A DNA stretch of 64,000 nucleotides, taken from positions 32,001 through 96,000 of the IMG/VR virus record IMGVR_UViG_3300031992_000022; one strand, 5' to 3'. Positions within the stretch are counted from its first letter, which is position 1. The number at the start of each line of letters is the position of its first letter. This DNA comes from a virus (taxonomy: Duplodnaviria > Caudoviricetes). Made by a program: the position numbers. Shown piece after piece: positions 57,001 through 60,000 of the stretch.

Positions 57001-60000
57001 AGCTGATATTGCTTTCCATATGTTACTCGCTCGCCCGTTTTATAAAAAAATCAGATAATTTTCTTTCATCTTTAATTATATTATTAGCTTGTTTATTTAA
57101 ATCATTATTAATTGCTGTATTATCTAAATTATTATTAATTTCTGTATTACCTAATCGCATCATATTATCTTGTTTAGCTGCAAAATCAGGCATACCTCCC
57201 ATATCTGTCATACCTTCAGATGTATCTTGTGCTTGTTTTGCTTGATTTTCATCATAATCTTTCATTCCGGGAAGAGGACCAGATTTTGGCGCATCAGGAT
57301 CAAAAACAGTACCACGTTCATTTTCAAGATTAGACTTTTCAACTTCTGGATTTAATCCAATAATATTTAATACCGTACGCGTTGATACTAACTTTTTACC
57401 TTGTAATGTTTGTAATAAATTAACTGCAGATTGATCTTGTGTTAAGTTCTGCTGACTCCAACGAATTTTAGGAATAACTAATTCCATTTCTCCTTTGTGT
57501 GCTAATATTAATTTTCGTCTATCCGATAAATGCGCTTGCGAAGTTTTTAATGCAGGATTGGGTTTAAAAAAGCCTTGCATTTCCGCAATAGGCTTATATA
57601 TCTTATTAATAATAAATCTTTCTAATTTATATCGATATGACATATATCGTTTACCTAAAGCATTGCCAACATCTCCACTGCCTTGTGGACCTTGTCCATT
57701 AATCATAGATTCATTAATATTTAGACCTGCCATTAATTCTTTTTGCACAAAATCAAATTCAGAATTAAGCGGTAAAATTTTTCCCGATGAACCAACATAA
57801 TCCATTTGTACACCATAATGATAAATAATAAAATTATACTAATATATTTTAAAATATTTATATATTTTAAAAATTCATACCAATTAAGCTCTCTACTTCT
57901 CAATATATTAATCACTTAATATATCTAAAGTCAAATCAATCTATACCTCACAGTATATTCTAAAATCGATTCAATATATACTTATCCTTTATATAATTTG
58001 TATTAAACAAACTGAACTTATAATTCTTATATATATATCATAATCAATTCTATATTGATTCTCGAACTCTAATTCGTCTTGGTGCTATTAGAACACCTCT
58101 AGAGTATAAGATAGATATATCTTCATATAAATTATGTATATCTTGACTATTTATTAAGTCTTTATAAGATATTCTTCTATCTACAACCTTATATTTATTT
58201 AACTGTTTTATTTTTTCATATTCTTTATTCAATAAATATTTTTTCAATATATTCAAAGCACTATTCATATCTGCATTGATTAATATACCATTATTGGACT
58301 TATAAAGTCCTCTCTTTATTCTTTTACCTGTAAATTGTTGCTTTTTTAATTCTACTTTATCATCTGTTGTTCTTAATACATAGCCTAACTTTTCATCTTT
58401 CTTATATGATAATATATAATCATTATCTAAAAAAGAAGCTTTAGATGTAAATGATTCTTCTTGAAGAATAAGATTTATATTATTTATCTTACATCTATAT
58501 TCTAAATTATCTTTTAATTTTCTAAATGGCATACTAGTAAAGTGTTGATTATTTTTCTTACCTAAATTAGAATTTCTTTGAAAATCATTATTCCATCCTA
58601 ATATAATAGTTTTTATATTATTTGGTAAACAATAATCTATTAATTTTTTACAAGTCTTATGAATATAATAATTAATTTTATTATTTCGTTTTTTTAATAT
58701 ATTATACATCTTTTTTGTATATCTTAACTTCTTATTAGTATTTTTCTTTTGTAATTTACTAATAATTCTATTATAACCTTGATTTATAGATTTTAATTCT
58801 TTACCATTTAATATAAAACTATTAATTTCCTTTTTAGAATTATGATTATAACTAATACAAGTCATTAAATTTTTAATACCTAAATCTATTGATAAATAAT
58901 TATTATTTTCTTGTATATTTTTATTAATTTCTATTTCATAAGTATAATGAATTTCGAATATTTTACCTTTATATTTAGGAACAACTTGTATATATTTTAT
59001 TTTTTTATCTTTTAATATAGTAGGTATTTTTATTCTAAATCTATCTTTACTTCGTGGTGCTAAATTATATTCTTTTAACATTTGATAACTTAAAGGAATA
59101 ATCCATTCATTATTTTTATTTATATGAATTTTATTGGTAGGTAATATAAAATAATCATTTTTATCTAAATATTTAGGAGTATTTACTTTATATCCTTTTT
59201 GTTTTACTTCAAAAAATGATTGAAAACTTTCATCTACTATATGAAGAATATTACAAGCAATTTGTGCTTCGCACAATTTATAATTAATATCATTTTTAAT
59301 ATTATAATATAAATTAGAATATCCTAAATATTTACCAGTATGAATAAAATATTGATTAATTAAATATAAACTTCTATTATAAATAGTTTTGCTATATTTA
59401 CAAAGTTTTTTAAATAATATATATAATTGTTTATATTTATATTTACTAACTTGTTGTTTAACAGTTAAATAAAATTTTTCTTTTTTATCATTAGTATTTT
59501 TCTTTTTAAGATTTCTATTAATAATTATTCACTTCCACAATTTTATACTTTATATATAAATAGTATATATAATAGTTAAAATTATAATAAGTAAAATAAT
59601 ATTAATTATTTATAAATATTTTAAATAATTATATTTTAACTTTAATTAAAATATAGATTATATCATTAATATAAATAAAATATATAATTAATGATTCTAT
59701 AAAAATATACAATATTAATCGTTAAATATATATATATTAATTAATACTTATATATTATTGATATACTATATAAAATAGATATTCCAATAAATAATTTAAT
59801 AAAATAATCCCTGTAAGGATCATCATCTGCCATCATTAATAAATCTCTAAATCTATTTAAATCGTCATCTGTTGGATAAGGTTCTCCAGGAGTACCAAGC
59901 TTAGCTAATCTAATTGGGAATATATGTCTATTAGCAATTGCATCTTGAGCCGAACGTAATTTATCTTTATAAATGAGTGCTTTAAAGCATCTCATCATTA

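Follow-up and report, generated by a model that had tools for sequence, protein, structure and literature searches.

Phage group I introns can carry protein homing endonucleases, as the td intron of T4 does with I-TevI. Another kind of intron with a nuclease gene is the group A IStron, which published accounts (PMC13565253, PMC4227781, PMC10690162) describe as an IA2 intron fused to an IS200/IS605 element, lying after TTGAT, ATTAT or TTTAT and ending in TCAG. In these accounts (PMC13565253 section 5.4; PMC4227781, PMC10690162) the 5′ junction is at once the splice donor, the site of the transposase TnpA and the target-adjacent motif (TAM) of TnpB; the dual role of this junction is hence already known (PMC13565253 section 5.4). 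TnpA loss is common in published IStrons, and intron homing has been predicted as a way for transposase-less IStrons to spread, provided that their TnpB remains active (PMC13565253 section 5.4). Here we analyse a window of 64,000 nucleotides (nt), bases 32001-96000 of the 158,834-base virus record IMGVR_UViG_3300031992_000022 (G000; CheckV completeness ~32%), in which the portal gene holds three introns (I1 to I3), the first and third of them with a tnpB gene.

Our best explanation, to which we assign a probability of roughly 0.7, is that I3 is an IStron-like mobile element without a transposase, in which P9 and the 3′ splice site are separated by tnpB and a structured tail of ~200 nt. The portal is similar to those of Bacillus phage G and Lak-type giant phages, the G+C content in the setting of the elements is ~21%, and the sequencing runs that hold the stretch are, by their run labels alone, from sheep and goat gut. 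There are three tnpB frames in the window, all on the minus strand, and five in the whole record. Coordinates are those of the window, and features are on the minus strand unless stated otherwise. For comparison we used EA, a sister element in a second host gene (whose product had no match in PHROGs or Pfam that would give a function); E0, the fifth tnpB copy, cut by the contig start; and loci named with an L, which come from a related phage record (G001, likewise only about a third complete) and from a metagenome scan, L028-L035 being classical IStron loci.

Splice junctions and P1 pairing

A search with portal exon 4 led to uninterrupted portals of ~590 residues, to which the four exon frames align end to end. 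The exons have open frames and are 73-91% identical to these intact homologues right up to the junctions, which lie at ...EAI/WEKF for intron 1, ...ESWG/TPLMM for intron 2 and ...DDDP/YNFIIYHYG for intron 3 (the slash marks the intron). Since the intact portals read ...DEDPYNFIIYHYG..., with DEDPYNF at the intron 3 site, the Tyr is part of the native protein, and G is the last base of the intron. This settles as DP/YNF a 3′ site that a first, sequence-only reading had left in doubt, with DP/NF as the other option and the Tyr as a possible insertion. In the EA gene the junction is NINP/IN(T or A)AF, and intact homologues reading ...SDNINP/INAAFRELF and ...PDNINP/VNAAFKELF match exon 1 plus a 21-codon exon 2. 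For the sister copy L003, an intact homologue with SNDP/AYN fixes the junction after GACCCA. By DNA and protein comparison, removal of the element restores the host frame at four junctions that are gapless against intact homologues (three in the portal and one in the EA gene) and in this sister copy. Across the predicted splice the exons would read ...GATCCT + TATAATTTT for portal intron 3 and ...AATCCT + ATTAATACT for the EA gene. The introns end in ...ATTAG (I3), ...ATCAG (EA) and ...TTCAG (I1), and neither the portal introns nor the EA gene show a target duplication. The 3′ exon starts differ at all copies, specificity being confined to the 5′ side. Because no portal relatives were found in IMG/VR and G001 is without a portal (nor did it have host genes in common with G000 in the flanks tested), there is no empty-site DNA for comparison.

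I3 and EA share one plan: a short AT-rich group I-like core, a tnpB of ~490 codons and a structured tail. They are 87.3% identical over aligned bases (core 76%, tnpB 88.6%, tail 79.6%), their TnpB proteins are 84% identical, and a 55-base tail pattern has exactly two matches, at 39807-39861 and 57932-57986, and matches 0 of 100 shuffles. Both elements follow the same motif, GATCCT/ for I3 (from 59815) and AATCCT/ for EA (from 41620), and both have the internal guide GGGATT after a loop of 4 or 6 bases; all seven positions pair (7/7) in each, with U-G at the -1 splice-site position. The similarity of core, TnpB and tail and the shared guide and flanks, all of which the sequence-only reading had put forward, are thus confirmed. 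So is its claim that one lineage occupies different genes after ATCCT, as the copies with a GGGAT guide, found in the G000 record, in G001 and in a metagenome contig, follow this motif in 6/6 cases. What it overstated is that the movement was recent, given a nucleotide difference of ~13% and a synonymous divergence (dS) of ~0.26.

The pairing extends beyond these two elements. Exon motif and guide covary across lineages (ATCCT/GGGAT, GAACC/GGTTT, GACCC/GGGTT, GATAT/GTATC and GCAAT/GTTGC), and in a P1 scan all 18 copies formed at least 5 of 6 pairs. The motif ATCCT occurs 125 times on the same strand of the record; because this is only ~8 per 10,000 positions, its presence at every GGGAT-type copy is not due to chance, and base pairing with the guide would demand it there in any case. 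The covariation of guide and exon motif makes the role of ATCCT as P1 partner of the GGGAT guide, proposed from the start, a well-supported prediction.

The wider family and the choice of sites

The third element in the window, I1, belongs to a second TnpB-intron lineage and was correctly read at first sight as following GCAAT with a matching guide of its own, GTTGC. Two further copies lie in a sigma-factor-like gene outside the window. One is a 503-nt TnpB-deleted derivative after CATCCT, with guide GGGATG and 89% identity to the portal element over its first 385 nt; the other is the fourth tnpB element, after GGATAT and with guide GTATC. There are six tnpB matches in G001, and its ATCCT-type copies L008b and L014 are without tnpB. 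In four G001 copies the TnpB is 86-88% identical in protein to that of EA, and these follow GAACCA, GAACCT, GACCCA and GAACCT, with guides GGTTT, GGGTT or GGGTTT. A 5′ splice site six bases further in (after ...AAT) was considered for the GAACC-type copies and ruled out by the intact homologue SNDP/AYN. The metagenome scan added L024 (ATCCT), L023 (ATCCA) and L025 (GATAT); the tnpB frames of L023 and L024 are interrupted, with longest open stretches of 350 and 302 codons, and their intron ends are intact. The 3′ end is TCAG in EA, E0, I1 and E4, and TTAG in I3 and its deleted relative. In the tnpB tree the ATCCT copies do not form one clade: the portal copy is basal, and EA groups with L024 (ATCCT), with L003 (GACCCA) as their sister.

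Introns with the same type of core number about a dozen in the 159-kb record. In nine of them a box and a perfectly complementary partner lie 19-56 nt apart, and three more are one base off or fall outside the search pattern. Minus-strand examples are found at window positions 6265, 7584, 8287, 15111, 35732, 36993 and others; most in G000 are without an open reading frame (ORF), and several lie in genes next to one another, with three in the portal alone. At I2, which is one of the ORF-less introns, another possible pairing is between GGGGT at the end of the upstream exon and ACTCC at the start of the downstream one.

The sequence-only reading took ATCCT to serve as TAM as well; in a strict form this is unlikely, because TnpBs 87-88% identical in protein to that of EA sit after AACCA, AACCT or ACCCA. 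Common to the flanks of the eight TnpB-bearing copies of the lineage examined (three with a cut or broken tnpB frame) is A-N-C-C-A/T, and only ~7 residues, two of them in the N-terminal third of TnpB, separate the two site types. Any TAM is probably a looser motif subset, about A-N-C-C-A/T, rather than ATCCT itself, and the simplest reading would be that the guide sets the exact motif while TnpB accepts the shared subset. A TAM cannot explain a move to a new gene in any event: TnpB would need a guide match of ~16-20 bases and hence cannot pick a new gene, so that the TAM is relevant only afterwards, for homing.

The mechanism that we propose is taken from published IStron work. The intron RNA would splice itself out, so that the portal is still made. 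Unspliced transcripts would supply the omega-RNA, with the tail as scaffold and the first ~16-20 bases of the 3′ exon as guide. TnpB with this RNA would cut intron-less alleles of co-infecting relatives beside the 5′-flank motif, and recombinational repair would copy the intron in, that is, it would home. In our own reading, which goes beyond that work, TnpB would not direct moves to new genes; such moves would need a site able to pair with the guide, either because they occur by reverse splicing or because only spliceable insertions survive.

A bolder version, which we offer tentatively and think rather improbable, is that an IStron lineage in giant phages shed its transposase and end hairpins to become a pure RNA-guided homing intron that is still colonising new genes. 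Reverse splicing directed by the five-base ribozyme guide would choose its sites. New sets of sites would become accessible when single bases of the guide change (GGGAT to GGTTT or GGGTT), and TnpB would tolerate these changes through a relaxed A-N-C-C-A/T TAM. If this is true, the same five bases are read twice, by RNA and by protein, and the two readers co-evolve. The family would then be a natural series for measuring the co-evolution of guide and TAM, and would include working A-U splice-site pairs.

Core, TnpB and tail, and competing explanations

The first ~190 nt of I3 probably represent a reduced, very AT-rich group I-type ribozyme core. When 11 copies were folded singly, all 11 gave the same helix order of P4/5, P6, P7 around a small hairpin and P8, then P9. 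P7 covaries between copies (GATTA/TAATC or GACTA/TAGTC, with strands ~55 nt apart), compensatory changes are visible in P4, P6 and P7, and the R and S boxes resemble those of the classical loci L028-L035. From the AT-rich alignment of the core, RNAalifold gave a consensus with hardly any structure.

The TnpBs score 139-147 bits against NCBIfam guided_TnpB (cut-off 100), match Pfam OrfB_IS605 and retain the RuvC D, E and D motifs. The whole IStron-related TnpB clade lacks the usual zinc-finger cysteines, and this is not peculiar to the copies described here. Each of the ten pairs of full-length copies gave a ratio of nonsynonymous to synonymous divergence (dN/dS) within 0.21-0.39 (0.33-0.39 for the I3 copy against its sisters). 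The protein was hence kept after the copies parted, and by this sequence measure TnpB is under purifying selection since their separation. The I3 frame has no canonical start codon: it opens after an in-frame TGA, and the first ATG, GTG or TTG is at 59276. Right before the frame, at 59520-59540 (minus strand), stands TTG TGG AAG TGA; the sister copy starts with TTG, and two relatives have ATG TGA at this position. The I3 tnpB may start at ATA or ATT, may have a start-stop leader with a non-canonical start, or may be impaired by damage to its start. Reading TGA as Trp to rescue the start was rejected, as Trp is encoded by TGG in the host genes, whose frames are long under code 11.

Folding predicts that the tail has one hairpin within the final codons and another across the stop codon, as well as a long helix with a covarying hairpin cap and a terminal 12-bp hairpin before the final seven bases. 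Some compensatory changes are found in these hairpins. TnpB-deleted derivatives retain only the last 60-75 nt of the tail, and one only the terminal hairpin; the tail end that they keep probably serves splicing and the remainder TnpB. The motif TTAATTGGTAT (57877-57887 and 39761-39771, minus strand) resembles the 5′ strand of P4 (TTATTGGTAT in several copies), and might compete for the P4 partner and so switch the RNA between a ribozyme fold and a guide-RNA fold. The middle of the tail occurs in two alternative versions, one in I3, L002 and L003 and the other in EA, E0, L001, L023 and L024. This distribution follows neither the tnpB tree nor the type of site, which suggests recombination among copies.

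Several observations count against our explanation of I3. That its RNA splices itself out is a conclusion drawn by analogy with published IStron work, on a basis of DNA and protein rather than RNA; RNA runs containing part of the stretch exist. The argument for P1 rests on covariation, the scan having been made without a shuffle control. At the splice site, L001, L003 and L023 have an A-U pair and L002 a U-U pair instead of U-G, which is unusual for group I introns; where the -1 exon base is A, its partner is U instead of G in 3/3 copies, so that the partner base changes together with the exon base. P3 could not be placed in the core folds of the 11 copies. Rfam searches of the window returned no group I intron, a negative that is uninformative because the same search also misses classical IStron loci with textbook-looking boxes. 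A PDB sequence search with TnpB gave no hit at E up to 0.01, and the I3 tnpB lacks the start codon discussed above. A transposase may also lie elsewhere in the genome or in the host, as both phage records are only about one third complete.

Among the alternatives, the one that we take most seriously, while still judging it unlikely, holds that ATCCT matters to the ribozyme only. TnpB would be a decaying or idle passenger, or would serve another purpose such as cutting competitor phages, and the introns would persist by vertical descent with occasional recombination instead of RNA-guided homing. Such an account would fit the missing start of the I3 tnpB, the broken frames of L023 and L024, the persistence in genes of three TnpB-deleted or ORF-less derivatives, and the fact that site type does not track the TnpB tree. 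An idle TnpB is nevertheless difficult to reconcile with five full-length frames of ~490 codons kept in DNA of ~18% G+C, with the dN/dS values and intact catalytic motifs, and with a conserved tail that shows compensatory changes.

We give still less credit to the idea that the elements are IStrons of the ordinary IS200/IS605 type whose movement depends on a Y1 TnpA supplied in trans, encoded either in the two thirds of the phage genome that the record lacks or by the host, with ATCCT as the transposase target. Group A IStrons likewise lie after a pentanucleotide whose last base is T and have TCAG as their 3′ end (PMC4227781; PMC13565253 section 5.4), and both the specificity on the 5′ side only, with varying 3′ exon starts, and the absence of a target duplication agree with this idea. 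However, the Y1 transposase domain PF01797 is unmatched in both records (each about a third complete), the paired end hairpins of the classical locus have no counterpart in the copies, and the flank motif tracks single-base changes of the guide, which points to base pairing rather than a protein constraint. Finally, the interrupted genes could simply be broken, with insertions that stay in the RNA, a view for which one can cite that splicing is deduced rather than seen and that Rfam gives no hit. We consider this highly improbable: essential genes are hit, the portal three times; the exons are open and match intact homologues to the exact junction; and every insertion is in the sense orientation, with a guide that pairs with its site.

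Table 1. Features of portal intron 3 (I3), its sister element EA and the other portal introns, in window coordinates; those of the P4/P5 and P6 hairpins were derived manually from the sequence and from single-copy folds.
Feature	Position	Strand	Basis
Portal intron 3 (I3), TnpB-carrying, group I-like (IStron-like), 1,977 nt	57839..59815	-	Gapless exon 3/4 join against intact portals P0001-P0012
Last five bases of portal exon 3, ATCCT; 5′ strand of P1, candidate TAM	59816..59820	-	Sequence; intact portals fix the exon assignment
Internal guide GGGATT, intron bases 5-10, after the 4-base loop TACA	59806..59811	-	Sequence; 7/7 pairing
Two hairpins, P4/P5 (59789-59756) and P6 (59755-59726)	59726..59789	-	Same in 11 copies each folded alone; compensatory changes
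Catalytic-core elements: R-like box 59724-59714 (P7 5′ strand GATTA, 59720-59716), small hairpin, P8, S-like box with P7 3′ strand TAATC (59660-59656)	59656..59724	-	
P9-like hairpin directly after P7	59630..59655	-	Present in 11/11 folded copies
I3 tnpB frame, 492 codons plus stop	58050..59528	-	NCBIfam guided_TnpB 139 bits (cut-off 100); Pfam OrfB_IS605 7e-18
I3 tail, 211 nt, candidate omega-RNA scaffold and intron 3′ domain	57839..58049	-	Conserved block 57932-57986; TTAATTGGTAT 57877-57887; terminal hairpin 57846-57873; end ...ATTAG, G at 57839
Portal exon 4, start YNFIIYHYG; first ~16-20 bases the putative TnpB guide (by analogy with the IStron literature)	57023..57838	-	
EA, 1,898 nt, in an Asn-rich gene	39723..41620	-	Junction from intact homologues P0147 and P0148
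Parts of EA: 5′ exon ...AATCCT 41625-41621; guide GGGATT 41614-41609; R box 41526-41516; tnpB 41354-39885; end ...ATATCAG		-	
Portal intron 1 (I1), second TnpB-intron lineage, 1,909 nt; after GCAAT, guide GTTGC, phase 2, end TTTCAG; tnpB 62141-60663	60489..62397	-	Junction ...EAI/WEKF
Portal intron 2 (I2), 219 nt, no ORF; same core family, R box 60131-60121; inferred end ...GATAA, not G	60008..60226	-	Junction ...ESWG/TPLMM

The window also holds an RNA of another guide family. At 34508-34734 (minus strand) lies a full-length HEARO RNA, of the IscB guide-RNA family, which scores 99 bits (gathering score 83); neither an IscB nor an HNH gene is recognisable beside it, and the downstream ORF of 150 codons (34039-34491) is without a Pfam match. 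Just upstream of the portal start there is also a weak HEARO-like match (63216-63318, minus strand; 26 bits, E 0.1), and after it comes an open frame of 107 codons (62946-63269) that matches nothing in Pfam or PHROGs.

Comparison with known elements

The closest described systems are the group A IStrons such as CdISt1 of Clostridioides difficile. With these the phage elements share the order of 5′ ribozyme, tnpB and a structured 3′ end in TCAG, and insertion, without target duplication, after a motif of five bases, the last of them T, to which the intron guide pairs (here ATCCT/, GATAT/ and GCAAT/). They also share a zinc-finger-less TnpB clade: the classical loci L028-L035 were among the nearest TnpB relatives in the metagenome scan (41% identity; after TTTAT, end GGTTCAG, with similar R, S and P9 boxes), and in the TnpB tree the phage clade adjoins the classical IStron TnpBs. 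The differences are as clear. In the records searched, the phage elements have neither TnpA nor recognisable left- and right-end hairpins. PF01797 had no match in the two phage records (0/2, each about a third complete), whereas the control search gave a match in 6 of 14 named genomes. Similarity between left and right ends was no better than in shuffles in 5/5 copies (32 to 260 of 300 shuffles reach the score), in a test that is weak in AT-rich DNA; among the classical loci, 0 of 300 shuffles reach the score of L034, and L028 and L029 do not stand out. L028 and L029 have an extra palindromic block in one end hairpin (the left end in L028, the right end in L029), and the related L034 is without it. 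Furthermore, ATCCT, GAACC+A/T, GACCCA, GATAT and GCAAT replace TTGAT, ATTAT and TTTAT, the 5′ part is much shorter than in the classical loci (R box ~92 nt from the splice site against >250 nt), and the elements belong to a giant phage, 159 kb of which hold at least five tnpB copies, the portal copy ending in TTAG instead of TCAG.

The family is a real, well-formed transposase-less branch of the IStron elements. It looks like a natural case of the transposase-less homing IStron that has been predicted (PMC13565253 section 5.4), because it has many copies in essential virion genes and in others, no transposase was found, TnpB is under selection, and deleted derivatives stand beside full copies. 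Sister copies that are one or two guide bases apart at matching sites form a panel for studying the match of TAM and guide and the routes to new genes. For annotation, genes of giant phages that seem split may be whole, and Rfam does not flag these introns.

In the literature that we found, phage IStrons appear only as group B elements of Clostridium botulinum phages, with no link between IStrons and giant phages, though supplements may list more. These group B (IS607-type) elements, CbISt3 and CbISt4 of phages c-st and D-1873, are likewise TnpB-carrying group I introns in phages (PMC4227781). Unlike the elements here, which follow the group A pattern, they insert after sites ending in GG, end in CGG and have a serine-recombinase TnpA. 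As for giant phages, a TnpB of a Lak-A1 phage (39% identity) was considered as a related intron element and set aside, since it looks free-standing and has no intron boxes upstream; of phage G, the TnpB sequence alone was used, in the TnpB alignments.

The IS200/IS605 systems of TnpB and omega-RNA, such as ISDra2, have a protein of the same family, and the TAM would be expected on the 5′ flank and the guide from the 3′ flank here as there. In contrast to ISDra2-type systems, the phage elements are embedded in introns and are without a transposase and without zinc-finger cysteines.

With phage introns of the T4 td type, finally, the elements have in common their residence in essential phage genes, a sporadic distribution and an expected spread by cutting the empty allele during co-infection. 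The nuclease of the phage elements, however, is TnpB, and its putative guide is the neighbouring exon, so that a single lineage could home at many genes.

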